Virus genome (UHGV): UHGV-0097687
DNA: 26,529 nucleotides
Reading direction: 5' to 3' (one strand)
DNA from: a virus
Shown here: in pieces, positions 5,850 to 12,672 of the stretch
How positions within the stretch are numbered: position 1 is the first letter of the stretch
Layout: the number at the start of each line of letters is the position of its first letter
Made by a program: the position numbers and the translations under genes
The notes under the pieces: generated by a model
Told to the model about the DNA's origin: nothing
The model's input: only the letters and a program-made list of their open reading frames with translations
The model's database searches: none

Positions 5850-7562
5850 CTAGGCCTGGGCTTCAGTTATAGTGGCAGCTTTTTCTAGATTCGATTTGAT
5901 GACAAGTTCATTTTTGTCTGCACTTATTTCTTCAAGTTTTTTCTGAAGAACCTCAACTTGTTTTTCACTTTCGATACCTTGCTTAGCCCGAATTTCGAGT
6001 AAAGATTTTGTCCTAAGTGCATTTTCTATTACATCTTCATCCATAAAACTCATGATATCCTCAACCAGATCCGGTACAAATCCCTCCGGCTGTAAATTTT
6101 TGCTTCTCAACTCTATAACCAAGTTGGCTGCAGTCTCTTTTGACATGGCTCCACTCGCGACAGAACCTTTCATATCTTTGTATACATTAGCGACTTTTGC
6201 TGCCACCTGTGTAGAAAGAATAACTTGTGCTCTAGCAACTACATCAAAAGTCGTAGGTAATTTCACTCCATTAGCAAACCCCTTATGAGACTTAAACCAT
6301 AATCTCTCAGTTATATAGTCTAAAGTGGCTGCGAATGGTATTGTTCTTTCTCCTTGAGTAGAAAAGTAATGTGATAGGGATTTGGTTATATTTTTACCCG
6401 TGATGAGTAGGGCTCCAGTTTGCTCTAACTTTATATTGCTTCTTCCTTTTCTTTTGTAATTTATCTTTGTGAAAATTTTTAAAGTATCAGCAATTTTATC
6501 CAATTCATAATCTGGGAATTCTCTTTTTAGTTTATCAAGTGTAGAGGTGCTTTCAATATTATACTCCGGCTTATCGTAATAATCAGTGTTAGCATCAAGA
6601 GAAATTTTCATTTTTCCTAGTTTTTCAAAAAACTCTATTTTTTTTATTGTGATGTCTGATTTTGTAGAACAGCTTTGTAGTAGATTGATCATTCCAGTCT
6701 TAGATGGGTCTGGATGTTGATTACGCTCGAAAATCTTTTCTGCTGCATAAAAGTAACTTTCAACTTCGCTTTGTGTTTCTTCAAAGTACTTTAATTCTAT
6801 TTTTGATTTATTTCCTGAGCGGTCTCGTAACCCCTTGACTAATAATAGAAATTCTTCAAACATACGATAATGAATATCGCCATTTAATCCTACAGCATCA
6901 AATAATAATTCCGTATCAAGAACTATTTGAAAATCATTCCTCCATGGCTCAGCATTCACTAAGTCTGAGTTATAACAGATCCCACCGTAAAGAATTAGTC
7001 CTTCTTCAACCTTGTTTAACTTATCGGTGAACAGAGGGTCTTTTGAATTCTGAATGATGAACTGACTGATAACTACGGAGTTCTCACTCTGCTTTCTGTC
7101 ATGAATAAAATATGAATAAAAATCTGATAATAGCTCTTCAATCTGCTCTAGATTAAGTTCTTCTTTACTAAAGGACTTAACGAATTGAATGAGCAAGTTT
7201 TTTATATAGTCTTGTTCTTCCTTTACTTGCTCGTAACTTGCTTTTAGATTATTGTTTCTATCAAATTTTTCAGTAACATAATATTTGCCATTTTTAAATT
7301 CCAACAAACCTATTTTCTTGAGTCTGTTTTTTAGACATGATTTCACTACAGCTTCAGGTATATCAAATCCATAGTCAGAATTTAGTTCCTGAGAGCACTT
7401 AGTTACGTCGAACTCCCATAACTGATGTATGACTATAGTTGAACATAGGAACTGAGCTAAAACATCGTATATATCTTTCTTATTTTCATGTAATTGACGA
7501 AAAAGAGCTGCAGATGCCAATAAACGTTGATCTTCCATAATTCCTTTCTTGAGAATACTCAT
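5850..7562 (-). CDS. Hypothetical 570-aa protein, AT-rich cargo gene (candidate defence or exclusion protein, function unknown)
   Basis: Long uninterrupted ORF in roughly 33% GC DNA; GGAGGGG RBS 4 nt before ATG; C-terminal coiled-coil-like region; no Walker, nuclease or RT motif recognised by eye. Confidence 0.7.
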   Translation of the reverse strand: MSILKKGIMEDQRLLASAALFRQLHENKKDIYDVLAQFLCSTIVIHQLWEFDVTKCSQELNSDYGFDIPEAVVKSCLKNRLKKIGLLEFKNGKYYVTEKFDRNNNLKASYEQVKEEQDYIKNLLIQFVKSFSKEELNLEQIEELLSDFYSYFIHDRKQSENSVVISQFIIQNSKDPLFTDKLNKVEEGLILYGGICYNSDLVNAEPWRNDFQIVLDTELLFDAVGLNGDIHYRMFEEFLLLVKGLRDRSGNKSKIELKYFEETQSEVESYFYAAEKIFERNQHPDPSKTGMINLLQSCSTKSDITIKKIEFFEKLGKMKISLDANTDYYDKPEYNIESTSTLDKLKREFPDYELDKIADTLKIFTKINYKRKGRSNIKLEQTGALLITGKNITKSLSHYFSTQGERTIPFAATLDYITERLWFKSHKGFANGVKLPTTFDVVARAQVILSTQVAAKVANVYKDMKGSVASGAMSKETAANLVIELRSKNLQPEGFVPDLVEDIMSFMDEDVIENALRTKSLLEIRAKQGIESEKQVEVLQKKLEEISADKNELVIKSNLEKAATITEAQA

Positions 7563-7634
7563 ACAGCCCCTCCGATCACATTTTTGATGGTTTGATACAG
7601 AAGCAACGTGTACTTATTTAATATTTAACAATAA

Positions 7635-7663
7635 ATCTACAATATTATTTCAAAGTGTGTCAA
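7635..7663 (-). promoter_or_regulatory. Candidate sigma70 promoter for the 570-aa gene
   Basis: Minus strand TTGACA (7663-7658), 18-nt spacer, TAGATT; about 70 nt upstream of the start codon. Confidence 0.3.
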
Positions 7664-8300
7664 TTTTTTTTAACTATCTAAAGCTAGATTCCCTTGGTAT
7701 ACAAATATTGTACAACAAAACAAAAATTTTCAGAGTTTTATTCTTTTATTTGCCGTAGGGGCTCGGGTTTGTTCGAGGTTTCCATCTGAAGCCCTCAAAC
7801 TGATGACCGACTTCCCTTGATTAAGGATAGCGTTGCATTGACCCGTTGAACTCACAGCTCATAACAGACATTCACTACGGTTATGGCAGAAAGGTATGCA
7901 TGCTGGGGATGGGGAAGTTGTGAAAGAAAAGAAGGCTGCTGCGTCGTTTGACATCACGTCTATCTTTTTATTGGTTATGCAGGTCGTAGTGGGACAAAAC
8001 TGAGACACATAAGGCCTCACAATGGCTTGCAAGGCTTTACATGTTTTGATGTAGTGGGACGTGTGAGCGCAGTGTTGATGGGGTAATGCATTGAATTAGA
8101 AGCGAATTCTTATAATTCGTAATGCTAAGATCGTAGGGGCGTCCCCATTTTCGGTACTACCTAAATCAATGAGTTACCTAACTTTTAGTTATGACATAAA
8201 GATATATATGCTAAGTAAGATATAGAGAAGCTGGTAAAGCAATTAAAGCTGTTGCTACGTGTGTGGCGGCTGATGTATAGCCATTTATGCAGATGAAACG

Positions 8301-8326
8301 AAAAAAAGCCCACATCTGTGGGCTTT
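8301..8326 (-). terminator. Intrinsic terminator (strong on minus strand, weak on plus)
   Basis: Minus strand GCCCACA-GA-TGTGGGC followed by TTTTTTT; lies about 230 nt downstream of the methyltransferase stop. Confidence 0.65.
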
Positions 8327-8443
8327 CAAGTCACTCGGGAGCCGCGGCTCCTTTGCGTATCCTTTTTTGTCTCCTCACCGTCTGGTCGGTGTCCTGCTGA
8401 GACTGCTAACTTCCTGTTTTTCTTGGTGTTGTCCTTACACCGT

Positions 8444-8457
8444 CCAATCATGATTGG
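8444..8457. repeat. Perfect 14-bp palindrome CCAATCATGATTGG abutting the att-like core
   Basis: Read directly from sequence. Confidence 0.6.
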
Positions 8458-8482
8458 CTGGCGGGAGTTGAACCCGAGTCCG
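8457..8482 (-). other. tmRNA (ssrA) 3'-end-like segment, candidate phage attachment-site core or remnant
   Basis: Minus strand CGGACTCGGGTTCAACTCCCGCCAGC matches the T-arm/acceptor region of E. coli ssrA as remembered (..CGGACGCGGGTTCAACTCCCGCCAGCTCCACCA), 25 of 26; similarity ends before the CCA end. Confidence 0.5.
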
Positions 8483-8554
8483 TATTTTTATAATTAGCTG
8501 AAATAAAACGATTAATACTAACCATTTTATTCTGCGGATCTTTTGCGGCTCCTT

Positions 8555-9454
8555 TTATGTCTGGATGTGGTCGTCAACACATCCTCTTTTAAATACAGGC
8601 GCTTTTACCTTAGTTGGATCATCTGTTTTAAAGATTTTCAATCGTTCACTGAAGAACATTACCTCAGATCCTTTGTACCGATCTTGAGCACTGTAGTTTA
8701 TTCCATATACTAATGATGATGTCTTATACATAGCTTGGATCTCAGGAGTGTTATCGTAAGAAACAATCCAAGGTGTTTTAATATTATTCTGTACGACTTT
8801 TGCAACCCTAACATGATCATCATGATCATAATGGTTGATATATAAACCTTTACCTTTTATGTAATAAGGTGGATCCAAATATGTTAATGAGTTTTGTGGC
8901 AATTGAGTAACTATTTTTTTAATGAAATCAATTGCATCCATGTTATATAAATCTATTCTGTGACGATTTTCTGATATTTTATGGATTCGAGAAATCAAAT
9001 CACTCTTATTATAGCGAGCGTCAAGCTTCCATTTCCCTTCTTGATTTTTACCGCCAATTACTCCACCTTTTAATATTCCAGAACGATTTGTTCTATTGAG
9101 AAAAAAGGTTGAGAAACCAATTGTTAAAAGATCATGGTCTTTAGGATTATTAATTATATCTTTCTGCCTAAACCATTCATCCATTGTAACTTCTGTTCTT
9201 TCAATTAAAGAACATAATTGATCTGCATGATTTAATACACTGTGCCAAAAAGCATAAACAGAAATATTAATATCATTAAGGATGATTTTTTCAGCTGCAT
9301 TTAGATGTAACAGTTTCAATGCTAAACCAGCACCCCCAGCATATGGTTCGGCATAATGTATAGGCGAAAGATTATTTTCTTCAATAATCCGAAGCATGAA
9401 ATTTGCAAGCTTGCCTTTACCGCCAGGATAGCGAAGTGGGGTGTTAAAACGCAT
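8555..9454 (-). CDS. Dam-family (alpha-class) N6-adenine DNA methyltransferase
   Basis: N-terminal PLRYPGGKGKL and EPYAGGAG (SAM-binding motifs comparable to E. coli Dam) and catalytic YLDPPYY; AGAGG RBS; AT-rich. Confidence 0.85.
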   Translation of the reverse strand: MRFNTPLRYPGGKGKLANFMLRIIEENNLSPIHYAEPYAGGAGLALKLLHLNAAEKIILNDINISVYAFWHSVLNHADQLCSLIERTEVTMDEWFRQKDIINNPKDHDLLTIGFSTFFLNRTNRSGILKGGVIGGKNQEGKWKLDARYNKSDLISRIHKISENRHRIDLYNMDAIDFIKKIVTQLPQNSLTYLDPPYYIKGKGLYINHYDHDDHVRVAKVVQNNIKTPWIVSYDNTPEIQAMYKTSSLVYGINYSAQDRYKGSEVMFFSERLKIFKTDDPTKVKAPVFKRGCVDDHIQT

Positions 9455-9488
9455 ATGATACCTCTAAATGTCAGATCTAAAGTATATC

Positions 9489-9528
9489 AAAAAAAGGGCT
9501 TTATGGCCATCACATAAAACCCTTTTTT
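9489..9528. repeat. Long near-perfect inverted repeat (about 16-bp stem, 7-nt loop) between the ATPase and methyltransferase genes
   Basis: AAAAAAGGGCTTTATG-GCCATCA-CATAAAACCCTTTTTT; on the minus-strand RNA the single mismatch is a G-U pair. Confidence 0.6.
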
Positions 9529-9534
9529 AATCAA

Positions 9535-11268
9535 TTAGTTATCTGACAGATATGATGAGATGGTAGCAGAATCGACACCATGTCCACTTATCATAATAAC
9601 TTTAAGACTCTTTATTAGTTCATTCTTGAAGCTATCCGATTGAACAGGATTTTTCTCGACCCAATATCGATATGGGTTATCTTTAACTCTTCCTTTGACT
9701 TGGGCCTGAAATTGAGTCGTATGTGCAAAATCTTTAAACAGTTTTCTAACTCTCCCTCCATGGTTTTTGTTAACTTTTTTATAATTATCTATAAGGATTT
9801 TTAAATCAATCGGAGCGTTACCAATCTTTAGCGTTGCAATTATGTCTTTAGCTGTTTTCATAAAAACAGCTTTTGTAAATTTATTTTTATTTTCCCAATA
9901 TGCATCATCAGGTGGTAAATTATATAAAAACTCAAAAATCATTTGGTCTGGAGGTAAGGTGCTTGGAAGCAAACATAAGTTTTTTTCTTTTTTGGCTTTT
10001 TTTGCATTAGCACTGTTGTCGTGAACAACATCACCGTCTAAGACGATCAAGCTTTTAGCTGTAAATTCTGGTATTTTTCTTGCCATTAAGTCAAGCATGG
10101 CAGAGCAGCTAATATTTATATTTCCTAATGGATTTAATATTTTATTTATTTTTCGATCTGTTATCAATTGTTTGAAAAAGTCGAAACCTTCTTTGTCTTC
10201 AAAATATACATTTGCCTTTGGAAGACAAATGTCATCATTAATTTTTACAGTTTCAACATGTAAATCAGCGTGGATATCTGTCCATGAAAGATTATTCTTT
10301 GTTTTAATATCTCCATATGTGTCTGTAAGATATATTGTTTTAAAGCTATCACTATCTTGTTTTGAACGATTATAGATATCCTCTATTATTAATGGAGAGT
10401 GCGAGGTCATGATTATTTGCAGATCGTATTGTTTTGCTGCTTTAGTTAGAATATTAATTAGCTCTAACTGTGCCGCAGGGAAAAGACCTGCATCGGCTTC
10501 ATCAATTAACAATATTCCGCCATGATAATCAGAATAAGTTTCCTTCAATCTTTTAAATGAAAAAATTGCCTGGATTAATTGTCCAACATTATCTTCACCA
10601 ACAGATACTGATTGGTGATCATAATTGTCACCATGGACAACCATTGAATCGATAGTACCTTTTGTTGCTGTTACTGAGCTTCCATTGTTTTTTAGTAAGA
10701 GTTGGTTACTCATCATTCTGATTTCATCAGAATTTTCATTGATGTACTGAACATCCCGTGTTGAGTAATCAGTCCTTAATGTAATAGGAAGAAGTCGTGC
10801 TAAGCTTAAAAAAATAACAGGATGAGTAACGTTTCTACTTTGGTTTTTTTCCGGTATTGAATCATTTCCCCTGACTACAGGCCTAGATTTATCTCTGTCA
10901 CTGTAGCTGTATAAACCTAATGTTAGTTTTTCAAGATGTTTGTTCGATGCACCATCATAGACACTAATTTTGACGTCCATTGAACCAGGAACATCAAATT
11001 GTTCTGAAAGCCTAAAATGTTCGCTGAAAGCTGACTTGAAGCTGCCATTTGTTAATGTTTTATATTGTGTTAAATCAGTCTCAGGGTTTTTGGTAAAGTC
11101 CTTTGTAAAGCTAAATATTTGGGCGATAATGCCAAGAATTGTGGATTTAGATGTGCCATTTTTACCACAAATAACAGTTAGGCGAGAACCAAACTCGATG
11201 TTTATATTTTTCAGTCCGCGAAACTTCACAACATTTATATTTTTTAGTTTGGTAATTTGATTTGCCAT
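9535..11268 (-). CDS. OLD-family ATP-dependent nuclease-like protein (N-terminal ABC-type ATPase, C-terminal Toprim-like domain)
   Basis: Start set at MANQITKLKNINVVKFRGL..; Walker A GKNGTSKST, Walker B/D-loop ILLIDEADAGL, H-loop MTSHSP; C-terminal ..FEDKEGFD.. and ..LIVLDGD.. resemble Toprim E and DxD motifs; 577 aa, similar in size to P2 Old and GajA. Confidence 0.72.
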   Translation of the reverse strand: MANQITKLKNINVVKFRGLKNINIEFGSRLTVICGKNGTSKSTILGIIAQIFSFTKDFTKNPETDLTQYKTLTNGSFKSAFSEHFRLSEQFDVPGSMDVKISVYDGASNKHLEKLTLGLYSYSDRDKSRPVVRGNDSIPEKNQSRNVTHPVIFLSLARLLPITLRTDYSTRDVQYINENSDEIRMMSNQLLLKNNGSSVTATKGTIDSMVVHGDNYDHQSVSVGEDNVGQLIQAIFSFKRLKETYSDYHGGILLIDEADAGLFPAAQLELINILTKAAKQYDLQIIMTSHSPLIIEDIYNRSKQDSDSFKTIYLTDTYGDIKTKNNLSWTDIHADLHVETVKINDDICLPKANVYFEDKEGFDFFKQLITDRKINKILNPLGNINISCSAMLDLMARKIPEFTAKSLIVLDGDVVHDNSANAKKAKKEKNLCLLPSTLPPDQMIFEFLYNLPPDDAYWENKNKFTKAVFMKTAKDIIATLKIGNAPIDLKILIDNYKKVNKNHGGRVRKLFKDFAHTTQFQAQVKGRVKDNPYRYWVEKNPVQSDSFKNELIKSLKVIMISGHGVDSATISSYLSDN

Positions 11269-11290
11269 GTTTCTATCTTGCTCCGTAAAA

Positions 11291-11309
11291 TGGCCACAAA
11301 TTGTGGCCA
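11291..11309. promoter_or_regulatory. Perfect palindrome TGGCCACAA-A-TTGTGGCCA between int stop and ATPase start (int terminator or operator)
   Basis: 9-bp perfect arms; on minus strand followed by ATTTTAC. Confidence 0.35.
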
Positions 11310-11326
11310 ATAGTTTCATGCTTGGA

Positions 11327-12493
11327 TTATATTGTTATCTTCTTCAAGCTTGTTTGTCCATCATATTCCTTCAGATATGAGCCATAGTGCCTGAAAAGCA
11401 TCTCCGGCCCTTTATGCCCCATTTGAGCTGCAAGCCAAAACAGGTTTGCTCCCCGGCTGATATGGCGGGTGGCGAATGTATGCCTGGTTTGATATGGATT
11501 TCTGTAACGAATACCTGCTTTTCGCAATGTTGGCACCCATGCTTTTTTCCTGATTGCATCAGCACTTGCCCAGGGCTTATTGGTCTTTGGATCTTCAAAG
11601 ACAGTAGCATCCTTCATGAATGTAAATGGCTTCTGATTTATCAGCGCCAACATTGCATCTTCTGTCAGTTCAACTTTACGAGTACCGGCTTTTGTCTTTG
11701 TTCCTTTGATAACACCGACAACACTTGCGCTCTGGACATGGGCAGTTTTTCCAACAAAGTCGATATCACGCCATCGAAGGGCACATAATTCAGAACTACG
11801 CAGGCCTGTATGTATAGCGAACCGGAACAGATTCTCCCATTGTTTGTTTCCGGCTGCTGTTAGTAATGCATCAACTTCTGCTGGTGATAGCGGATCAACC
11901 ACGTAGCTGCTTTCTGCTTCTGACTTATCACTTTGGTAGCGCGAAGCAGTTACCAACGATACGGGGTTAATTTGAAGTACCCCATCGGTTACGGCTTCAT
12001 CAAGTGCTGACCGCAGGAAAGATAACTGGTTGCGAATTGTTTTTAAGGTCGTTTTCTGGCTTTGAATCCACGCTTTCAGGATTGCTGGTGTTAATTCACT
12101 TGCAGGGCAAATGTGGAGTGAGGCTAACGCACTACGGCATTTTTTATAACCACCAATCGTAGAGGGTGAAAGTTTTCTCGTTTCGCAGATTTCAAGGTAT
12201 TCGTCCAGGTACATTTTTACCGTTTTGCCTGCAGCAGCATTACCAAAAATTTTCAAACGAGCAGAACGGGGAAAATATTCCGCATAAATGAATGTTCCCC
12301 TTTCGATCTTATTATGAATTTCGCCGAGTGTGCGCTCGGCGTATTTAATGTTCTTTGGTGTTACTTCCAGATTGGAAAGAGGCTCACGACATTTAACTCC
12401 TTTGTAGGTGAAAGTTATATTGATCGTTTCGCCCTGGCGGTGTTTCCTGATTGTTACGCCGCGCGGTAGTTTGAGCAGTTTTGTCTGGCCCAT
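11327..12493 (-). CDS. int: Tyrosine recombinase (phage integrase) with N-terminal arm-binding domain
   Basis: 388 aa; C-terminal catalytic motifs ..HTGLRSSEL.. and ..RHTFATRHISRGANLFWLAAQMGHKGPEMLFRHYGSYL (R..H..R..Y); start overlaps xis. Confidence 0.9.
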   Translation of the reverse strand: MGQTKLLKLPRGVTIRKHRQGETINITFTYKGVKCREPLSNLEVTPKNIKYAERTLGEIHNKIERGTFIYAEYFPRSARLKIFGNAAAGKTVKMYLDEYLEICETRKLSPSTIGGYKKCRSALASLHICPASELTPAILKAWIQSQKTTLKTIRNQLSFLRSALDEAVTDGVLQINPVSLVTASRYQSDKSEAESSYVVDPLSPAEVDALLTAAGNKQWENLFRFAIHTGLRSSELCALRWRDIDFVGKTAHVQSASVVGVIKGTKTKAGTRKVELTEDAMLALINQKPFTFMKDATVFEDPKTNKPWASADAIRKKAWVPTLRKAGIRYRNPYQTRHTFATRHISRGANLFWLAAQMGHKGPEMLFRHYGSYLKEYDGQTSLKKITI

Positions 12494-12672
12494 TTTGCAA
12501 CCTCACTAAGATCAATCCACCTCTCCTTAACGCCTTCAACCTTTAAAACCTGAACACCTTCACGCCAAACACCGCGCTGTACACGTTTGTTTATTGCTTC
12601 AGGAGTTTCGCCAGTTTCTTTGCAATAAGTTGAGATTGGAACGCAATCGAGGTTCAGCATATGTTTCTCCAC
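12454..12672 (-). CDS. xis: Excisionase-like DNA-binding protein
   Basis: 72 aa, directly upstream of and overlapping int; basic/aromatic small protein typical of Xis. Confidence 0.65.
   Translation of the reverse strand: MEKHMLNLDCVPISTYCKETGETPEAINKRVQRGVWREGVQVLKVEGVKERWIDLSEVAKWARQNCSNYRAA

Follow-up and report, generated by a model that had tools for sequence, protein, structure and literature searches.

What fills a stretch of nearly 1 kb without genes in the AT-rich cargo region of a phage genome? The question is raised by positions 7563-8554 of the virus genome UHGV-0097687, a metagenome contig of 26,529 bp (ENA ERZ824673 NODE_1104, coverage 4.3) that was analysed at its full length and is referred to as the window. 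A preliminary description had noted that this gap contains no open reading frame (ORF) of 60 codons or more and that 7740-8100 is richer in GC than its flanks. Both observations hold. No such ORF lies wholly inside the gap on either strand, the longest ones comprising 59 amino acids (aa; 8318-8497, plus strand) and 57 aa (7859-8032, minus strand). The GC content of 7740-8100 is 45.7%, compared with 27.7% at 7563-7739 and 33-34% in the flanking genes; it is 53% at 8302-8482 and 29% at 8483-8554. Recombination arm sites, an unannotated structured RNA and decayed coding sequence had been put forward as explanations. Our analysis identifies the gap as a composite attachment (att) region, and neither as a free-standing non-coding RNA gene nor as decayed coding sequence. 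The GC content is balanced because the pieces derive from host-like transfer RNA (tRNA), transfer-messenger RNA (tmRNA) and flank sequence amid AT-rich cargo genes. With a probability of roughly 80%, the gap combines the attachment region used by a lambda-like temperate phage with the scar of an earlier integration module. It is a new instance of a familiar feature, namely an attachment region of the type found in phage LLS at the tmRNA gene ssrA, with a fossil site of the thrW type beside it.

The working attachment site at the end of ssrA

Positions 8302-8556 are the working phage attachment site (attP) of a lambdoid phage, which recombines at the bacterial tmRNA gene ssrA. The following parts can be distinguished:

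8302-8443, minus strand: phage copy of the host ssrA 3' trailer, which is the P' arm (homology, covariation, terminator scan)
8344-8366, minus strand: tandem AAAGGAGCCGC / AAAAGGATACGC, including GCGGCTCCTTT at 8344; putative P' arm-type integrase (Int) sites
8444-8457, no strand: core palindrome CCAATCATGATTGG, whose last three bases are the CCA end of ssrA
8455-8483, minus strand: tmRNA-derived 3' fragment (T-arm and acceptor strand) without the 5 nucleotides (nt) TCCAC, from the ssrA alignment
8484-8556, minus strand: AT-rich P arm, running into the stop codon of the methyltransferase gene
8534-8556, minus strand: P-arm tandem AAAAGGAGCCGC (8545-8556) and AAAAGATCCGC (8534-8544); putative arm-type Int sites

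The site matches the E. coli ssrA end across 8302-8482, save for a 5-nt indel. The search for prophage junctions that had been suggested was productive: by megablast, window 7563-8482 directly abuts ssrA in four E. coli genomes at 99.4% identity. On the attL side of the prophage in E. coli MS21324, smpB and ssrA are followed by the gap sequence, a version of the cargo gene with 672 aa and the tail genes; about 44 kb further on come int, the ATPase and methyltransferase genes, then about 250 bp, and then glaH. The same right end (attR) is present in E. coli 19AR0253, and a second metagenome contig is of the attL type, with smpB, the gap and the 570-aa gene that borders the gap in the window. 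An element-free E. coli strain has ypjA, 150 nt and ssrA.

The crossover was mapped by a four-way alignment of attP (the window), the bacterial site attB, attL and attR. The attL sequence is that of the phage from 8200 to 8456 and that of the host beyond, and attR is the converse; attL combines the phage-type trailer with native ssrA, and attR the phage-type truncated tmRNA end with the native trailer. The parental sequences can last be told apart at 8430 and, towards the opposite side, by the 5-nt indel at 8456/8457; this places strand exchange within GTCCTTACACCGTCCAATCATGATTG (8431-8456), an interval that takes in most of the perfect palindrome CCAATCATGATTGG. With strand exchange at the mature 3' end or immediately beyond it, the lysogen keeps an entirely native ssrA. 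Integration severs the gene from its own 150-nt trailer and terminator, which are replaced by the near-identical phage copy (8302-8443), and sends the tmRNA-like fragment of the phage (8455-8483) to attR. This fragment is not a tmRNA gene: ARAGORN reports none there, and cmscan with RF00023 gives 9 bits over 15 nt (model positions 348-362; threshold 47), compared with 292.8 bits for a real ssrA with the same tool.

Evidence for the arms comes from repeated motifs. The direct repeats GCGGCTCCTTT had been correctly reported at 8344 and 8545; they are exact, there are no further copies in the window, and none of 100 shuffles contained any. Both are part of a tandem motif. On the tmRNA strand, the tandems read AAAAGGAGCCGC-AAAAGATCCGC in the P arm (8556-8534) and AAAAGGATACGC-AAAGGAGCCGC in the P' arm (8366-8344), all four copies being in one orientation at a distance of some 90 bp from the core. 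The window contains AAGGAKMCGC three times (0.19 expected), always in these P and P' arm repeats. When eight attP/attR loci with an Int 87-99% identical to that of the window were aligned, a tandem AAARGNNCCGY was the sole conserved block in P arms that are otherwise unalignable, at a fixed distance of 85-110 nt from the core in 8/8 loci. The same block is found in phiNP, which was outside this alignment, and loci with an Int of only 66-69% identity have ATGCACGTAAAATGCACGT instead. This pattern suggests that the AAARGNNCCGY repeats are probably arm-type Int sites. The idea of a recombination region is borne out for 8302-8556, which is an attP with GCGGCTCCTTT in a tandem of putative arm-type sites and with attL and attR counterparts in lysogens, but not for the GC-rich 7740-8100, which belongs to a fossil attP of the P22/SfV thrW type.

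The tandem motif of the P' arm is also present in the host ssrA flank. As a consequence, attR (P arm, core, native trailer) is laid out as an attP, and attL as an attB. If the flank in attB acted as a P'-like arm, recombination would lack the architectural features on which its direction usually depends; the likeness of attR to attP bears on the control of recombination direction and on the pile-up of elements at ssrA. In the mechanism that we propose, Int would bind the core and the tandem AAARGNNCCGY repeats about 90 bp to either side, and would exchange strands with the identical sequence at the ssrA end, and the tmRNA-like fragment of the phage would end harmlessly at attR. The location of the site agrees with the gene order of the window, which is the vegetative (attP) order of a lambdoid phage, where attP is expected between the b-region cargo and int.

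Several known systems can be compared with this arrangement. Escherichia phage LLS (PQ299149) has an Int 87% identical to that of the window and the same layout of int, cargo, P arm, tmRNA 3' fragment, core and ssrA trailer. Its nucleotide identity to window 8302-8490 is 85.6%, and the LLS record annotates the homologous region as a tmRNA pseudogene and attP. The LLS attP was deduced to lie in the ssrA 3' end (Genome Res 2025, PMC12315714). LLS differs in that its tmRNA acceptor end is intact, whereas the window lacks TCCAC, in having other cargo between int and attP, and in having no P22-type fossil beside attP. Its authors placed attP within a 29-bp block of tmRNA identity, whereas, according to the lysogen junctions described here, the crossover falls at the CCA end or beyond it. 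The TCCAC deletion is limited to a sub-lineage comprising the window and our loci L004, L049, L155 and L166; relatives with about the same Int (L087, L065, L134 and LLS) have an intact acceptor end.

Like the window, lambda, whose attP is the model for a heterobivalent Int, has int and xis transcribed towards attP, a dyad-symmetric core and direct repeats in both arms, and in sib/tI a terminator just across attP from int. However, the arm motif and core sequences are unrelated, and the window has two cargo genes between int and attP. A sib-like retroregulation was considered and rejected. It is not expected because the host attB flank has the same trailer, and the terminator is not separated from int on integration: attR has the native trailer and terminator after the P arm, and the int operon meets an equivalent element in phage and prophage. 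In Haemophilus phage HP1, attP contains a long block of identity with a host tRNA operon, which preserves the operon. The window resembles HP1 in that host-identical sequence well past the crossover keeps a host RNA transcription unit intact, but tRNA genes are preserved there and an untranslated ssrA trailer with its terminator here.

Two further elements use the same gene. The speA prophage of S. pyogenes sits between two ssrA terminators, and read-through from ssrA into its cargo has been documented (PMC9951164). It shares with the window a position directly downstream of ssrA, co-oriented cargo and read-through governed by terminator strength. The S. pyogenes phage splits the host terminators, whereas trailer and terminator arrive as a complete copy with the phage of the window. 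CP4-57 of E. coli K-12, which has a P4-type IntA, also targets ssrA and has a damaged ssrA fragment (psaA) at attR. In contrast to the window, its IntA is unrelated (17% identity to the LLS Int), its crossover is inside the tmRNA sequence, and it supplies an unrelated 75-nt trailer and terminator.

Some observations weigh against the reading of the gap as a composite attachment region. The assignments of the arm-type sites and of the core were made from sequence patterns. Two pieces, 7744-7813 and 8179-8301, are not accounted for. In K-12, ssrA works with the unrelated trailer and terminator of about 75 nt from CP4-57, so that tmRNA function as such does not require the copied trailer. Furthermore, the contig has a coverage of 4.3x, and the attP junction could have been assembled across the attL/attR repeat of about 180 bp. 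If so, the attP would be an assembly chimera from a sample with lysogens only, attL having been joined to attR through the common repeat. Apart from the low coverage, this is suggested by the core and the about 90% identical trailer that attL and attR have in common. On the other hand, the junction is the product expected of site-specific excision, and the same order of P arm, core and trailer is found in the sequenced LLS virion genome. We thus consider a chimera improbable. A junction assembled across the repeat would have the same sequence as a true attP, and the anatomy of the parts is unchanged either way. Since attR has the attP order, viral contigs with that order beside int are either attP or attR.

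A fossil thrW-type site beside the working one

To the left of the working attP, positions 7814-8178 are a fossil attP of the P22/SfV type, a relic and not a working site. It consists of the following parts:

7814-8114, plus strand: fossil P arm of a P22/SfII/SfIV/SfV-type attP
7986-7995, plus strand: GTAGTGGGAC, copy 1, conserved in every P22-type attP aligned
8051-8060, plus strand: GTAGTGGGAC, copy 2; relatives have GTGGTGGGAC
8115-8159, plus strand: decayed 46-nt core (3' end of the tRNA-Thr gene thrW), with CGTAGGGG at 8132 from GGTCGTAGGTTCGA
8160-8178, plus strand: last bases in common with Sf-type phages; breakpoint and former start of a P22-type int

Positions 7990-8177 are 89-90% identical to the attP region between gtrA and int of SfIV, SfII, SfV and SfI, and 75% identical to that of P22. 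The homology of the fossil extends to the left as far as 7857 in phi458 and 7814 in 566 E. coli genomes. The 46-nt core, which is the 3' end of thrW, is the core of SfI, SfII, SfV, SfX, P22 and DLP12 (PMC3636060). As a perfect 46-mer (ATTCGTAATGCGAAGGTCGTAGGTTCGACTCCTATTATCGGCACCA) it is present in SfIV and the other Sf phages, in phi458 and at two E. coli loci. The window thus has the same order as the attP of P22 and of SfI, SfII, SfIV, SfV and SfX, with the arm, the 46-nt tRNA-Thr core and the start position of int. It differs from them in that its core has decayed to 36/46 identical positions with one deletion, and in that no P22-type int follows. ARAGORN finds no tRNA gene at the fossil core.

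The motifs that had been reported in this region can be traced to the fossil in part. A repeated CGTAG(G/T)GG is exact at 7754, 7985 and 8132, but the fourth copy, listed at about 8050, is really TGTAGTGG. CGTAGKGG has only these three copies in the 26.5-kb window (0.77 expected), and three copies were reached in 6/100 shuffles. The true repeat is GTAGTGGGAC, which is found in two exact copies 65 bp apart at 7986 and 8051 (0.07 expected), and which we infer to be probably an arm-type repeat of a P22-type Int. At 8132, CGTAGGGG is derived from GGTCGTAGG. The supposed hairpin GGGGCGTCCCC is present, although at 8136-8146 and not at 8133-8143, and is a ruined T-arm, the remainder of GGTTCGACTCC.

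Is the fossil perhaps a frameshifted remnant of a protein gene, e.g. of an integrase? BLAST rows do give "integrase" under the matches to the Sf phages and P22. However, the homology to the Sf phages stops at the int stop codon, where the SfIV match overlaps int by only 4 bp. Beyond the fossil, a tblastn search of 7400-8700 with the SfIV Int gave no coding remnant, the best match having E = 0.78. All parts of the gap with identifiable homology are att, tRNA, tmRNA or flank DNA; what decayed is a tRNA-derived att core and not coding sequence. The proposal of decayed coding sequence is therefore hardly credible.

A free-standing small RNA of the phage in 7740-8100 is also very unlikely. A GC content above that of the flanks, terminator-like hairpins on the minus strand (8035-8014 and 8019-8001) and conservation in many prophages would be in line with such a gene. 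But this conservation belongs to the gtrA-int intergenic attP region of P22/Sf-type phages, the "terminators" do not have a proper U-run, no promoter-like site is found within 7740-8100, and there is no Rfam match even at E values up to 10. Moreover, the adjoining tRNA-derived core has decayed, as expected of a dead site.

In the simplest history, int and attP of an ancestor would have been of the P22 type, and an ssrA-specific module would later have taken the place of the one right of 8178. A prophage of E. coli EC9682 located next to yecD (locus L002, 6001-6557) has a single block made up of the decayed thrW core, spacer, trailer and truncated tmRNA end. Here the block is inert cargo at a different locus, which shows that att relics travel and accumulate. 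In E. coli O157:H7 FRIK2069 (locus L010, 4001-4345), a perfect 46-bp thrW-type core with its arm was observed away from annotated tRNA genes; it lies just upstream of a tyrosine recombinase, which is followed by genes of an ABC-three-component system. A gene-free, GC-balanced stretch in AT-rich phage cargo can thus be read base by base as stacked att sites, one live and one dead, and the gap records the swap of an integration module from the thrW type to the ssrA type.

The copied ssrA trailer and its RNA structure

In the P' arm of the working attP, host-like sequence continues for 150 nt beyond the crossover. In most E. coli genomes, the 150 nt after ssrA are 88-94% identical to window 8302-8456. 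This homology ends exactly behind an intrinsic terminator, and does so in the host flank as well as in LLS and phiNP. A 19-mer from the trailer matched the genomes of 18 Enterobacterales species. ARAGORN detects a complete tmRNA gene in 9/18 (three Escherichia species, two Klebsiella, Leclercia, Pseudenterobacter and two Erwinia), and in the aligned rows the trailer starts directly after the tmRNA end. Ordinary chromosomal genes (glaH-lhgO, ypjA) follow the trailer in some of these genomes. In K-12 (NC_000913.3), the native trailer is located at the right end of CP4-57, after the psaA fragment and 22 kb from ssrA; the native and the CP4-57-supplied trailers are at approximately 2,777,985-2,778,140 and 2,755,956-2,756,040, respectively. 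This displacement could be the reason why the trailer has been overlooked.

On the minus strand, the phage copy can be folded into four hairpins:

8425-8441, minus strand: H1, GGUGU-AAGGACA-ACACC
8369-8403, minus strand: H2, GUCUC..CACCG-ACCAGA-CGGUG..GAGAC
8338-8351, minus strand: H3, GGAGC-CGCG-GCUCC, which is the palindrome GGAGCCGCGGCTCC
8304-8327, minus strand: H4, terminator with U-run

The palindrome of H3 had been described as perfect, which is correct, although it was placed one base off its actual position. H4 (8327-8304) has 10 pairs and a loop of 4, followed by UUUUUUU, and its stem is kept with differing sequences in LLS, phiNP and Erwinia. Comparative alignment did reveal compensatory substitutions in the hairpins of the ssrA trailer. 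In a first alignment of 44 sequences, 96.8% of the cells were paired, compared with 39-47% when the partner was slid, and seven pairs change on both sides; H1 pair 28-36, for example, which is never unpaired, has AU 18 times, CG 13 times and UA 12 times. A second collection, anchored elsewhere in the trailer, uncovered a second structural class. Here a long-range stem, AGUGGC/GCCACU (in one member AGCGGC/GCCGCU, and with a G-U in another), takes the place of H1, and the inner H2 stem is flipped and reads GGUG/CACC or GCG/CGC, with the loop unchanged. The combined alignment has CG 22 and GC 8 at pair 72-83 and CG 27 and UA 3 at pair 73-82, none being unpaired. Across the two covariation analyses, the proportions of paired cells were 96.8% and 90.7%. 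Class 2 trailers are carried by the IMG/VR loci L174, L180, L190, L194, L196, L202, L205 and L207.

Rfam has no counterpart for this element. A covariance-model scan of the gap, and of the whole window, found no family at the gathering score, and Rfam 15 gave no family for the trailer either in the window or at the native ssrA locus. At E values up to 10, only chance-level matches appeared in 7400-8700: the tmRNA fragment matched Tymo tRNA-like (21.9 bits), and the terminator hairpin matched STnc350 and a toxic small RNA. In the literature searched we found neither the core, H2 and H3 sequences nor an enterobacterial ssrA trailer; Williams 2003, "Traffic at the tmRNA gene", was outside this search. 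What is new here is that the ssrA trailer is, as judged from covariation, a structured element conserved across Enterobacterales that matches no Rfam family. The suggestion of an unannotated structured RNA was accordingly right in so far as the host ssrA trailer, with its covarying hairpins, is copied in 8302-8456 (minus strand), but this copy has no Rfam match and is not a self-contained RNA gene.

H4 is the only terminator after ssrA, so that the trailer is necessarily co-transcribed with tmRNA, and the phage copy restores a terminator between ssrA and the 570-aa gene. The phage-borne trailer would end ssrA transcription before this co-oriented cargo gene and would at the same time serve as the P' arm.

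Might the trailer do more than this? It is conceivable, although we remain doubtful, that the 150 nt or so after ssrA in Enterobacterales form a structured and conserved RNA module with its own function, which would be made in equimolar amounts with tmRNA and processed at the 3' end; phages would copy it exactly, and Int would have adopted a part of it as arm-type sites. The trailer copy (8302-8456, minus strand) would then be a functional RNA that is co-transcribed, is freed by 3' processing much like a 3' external transcribed spacer, and has to be preserved by the phage. This tentative proposal adds to the reading of the gap as a composite attachment region and does not replace it.

Several observations point in this direction. 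No terminator intervenes between the ssrA end and H4, so that the trailer is transcribed with tmRNA, and no Rfam family covers the element. The hairpins are kept by compensatory changes in two structural classes, and the unpaired stretches are nearly invariant from Escherichia to Erwinia. The ratios of G-U to A-C cells are 19:0 in the outer stem of H2, 8:3 in H3 and 19:2 in H4. However, the bias is reversed in H1 (1:9) and in the inner stem of H2 (0:6), and K-12 tmRNA works with an unrelated trailer, as mentioned above. The invariant stretches overlap the putative Int arm motif, so that constraint at the DNA level together with phage traffic could explain them, and the sequences were gathered with exact anchors inside the element. 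GGA motifs are not significantly enriched (7, compared with 4.1 +/- 1.6 in shuffles). A role as a CsrA sponge was rejected: 7 or more GGA were reached in 137/2000 shuffles, and the GGA of the H2 loop varies (GCAAGAC, GCAAAAC). If the functional RNA were real, one of the genes that bacteria transcribe most strongly would have a new by-product RNA, and this would explain why phages inserting at ssrA carry 150 nt of host-like sequence beyond the crossover.

Some other ideas about the trailer were tried and discarded. The 41-aa ORF at 8326-8451 (minus strand) is not a small protein, since homologues have in-frame stops (GGTGATAG...) and the Erwinia version has no ATG. A relaxed constraint on the displaced trailer of K-12 (GG>AA) was dismissed because the same variants occur directly after complete ssrA ends. 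Nor do several unrelated phage families appear to carry the trailer: P arms with GGTATAC repeats or AATTCAGACTCCGCC are more simply explained as attR junctions of islands, e.g. CP4-57. The trailer copy is shown only for the Int group of LLS and the window. In the record of the Citrobacter phage phiNP, whose trailer resembles the Erwinia type, the tmRNA 3' 25-mer is present twice in tandem at the start/end junction, which may be an artefact of circularising a prophage from attL and attR.

Neighbouring genes and remaining pieces

The gap and its surroundings are arranged in the window as follows:

start to ~5400: tail tip protein J, Lom, side tail fibre (stf) and small ORFs
5850-7562, minus strand: 570-aa ORF, no family match
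7563-8554: gap
7563-7743, minus strand: AT-rich (28% GC) upstream/promoter region of the 570-aa gene
7744-7813, no strand: GC-balanced piece with CGTAGGGG at 7754
8179-8301, no strand: spacer between the fossil and the working attP
8555-9454, minus strand: D12 methyltransferase
9535-11319, minus strand: AAA ATPase
11327-12493, minus strand: integrase with an Arm-DNA-bind_2 domain
12454-12672, minus strand: excisionase (xis)
beyond 12672: early genes

Int combines the domains PF12167 (Arm-DNA-bind_2) and PF00589 (Phage_integrase), and xis matches phrog_2917 (1.6e-45). The two cargo genes between int and attP (8555-11319, minus strand) encode the methyltransferase, which matches the PADLOC model PD-Lambda-5_B (2e-124), and the adjoining ATPase, which is phrog_3940. 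They form AT-rich cargo in whose place relatives with the same Int have other cargo or none.

The 570-aa ORF on the other side of the gap has no Pfam, NCBIfam or PADLOC match. Its version in the MS21324 prophage has 672 aa and a longer C-terminus. In the integrated state, the gene is directly downstream of ssrA and the copied terminator, and is co-oriented with them. Its upstream region (7563-7743) contains a Shine-Dalgarno sequence and, according to a promoter scan, a sigma-70-like promoter with 10/12 matches (-35 TTGACA, 7663-7658; -10 TAGATT, 7639-7634). Only 4/5426 E. coli genomes have 7563-7813, always beside the 570-aa gene.

For 7744-7813, an exact 21-mer was absent from IMG/VR and no Rfam match was obtained; the minus strand is somewhat more stable in folding than its shuffles (z = -2.25), and the plus strand has z = 0.17. 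An inverted match between 7756-7769 and 8471-8484 (12/14) was examined as a clue to its origin, but looks like chance. The spacer 8179-8301 has no annotation and no Rfam match; with about 92% identity, it is contiguous with both of its neighbours in prophages such as that of EC9682 next to yecD.

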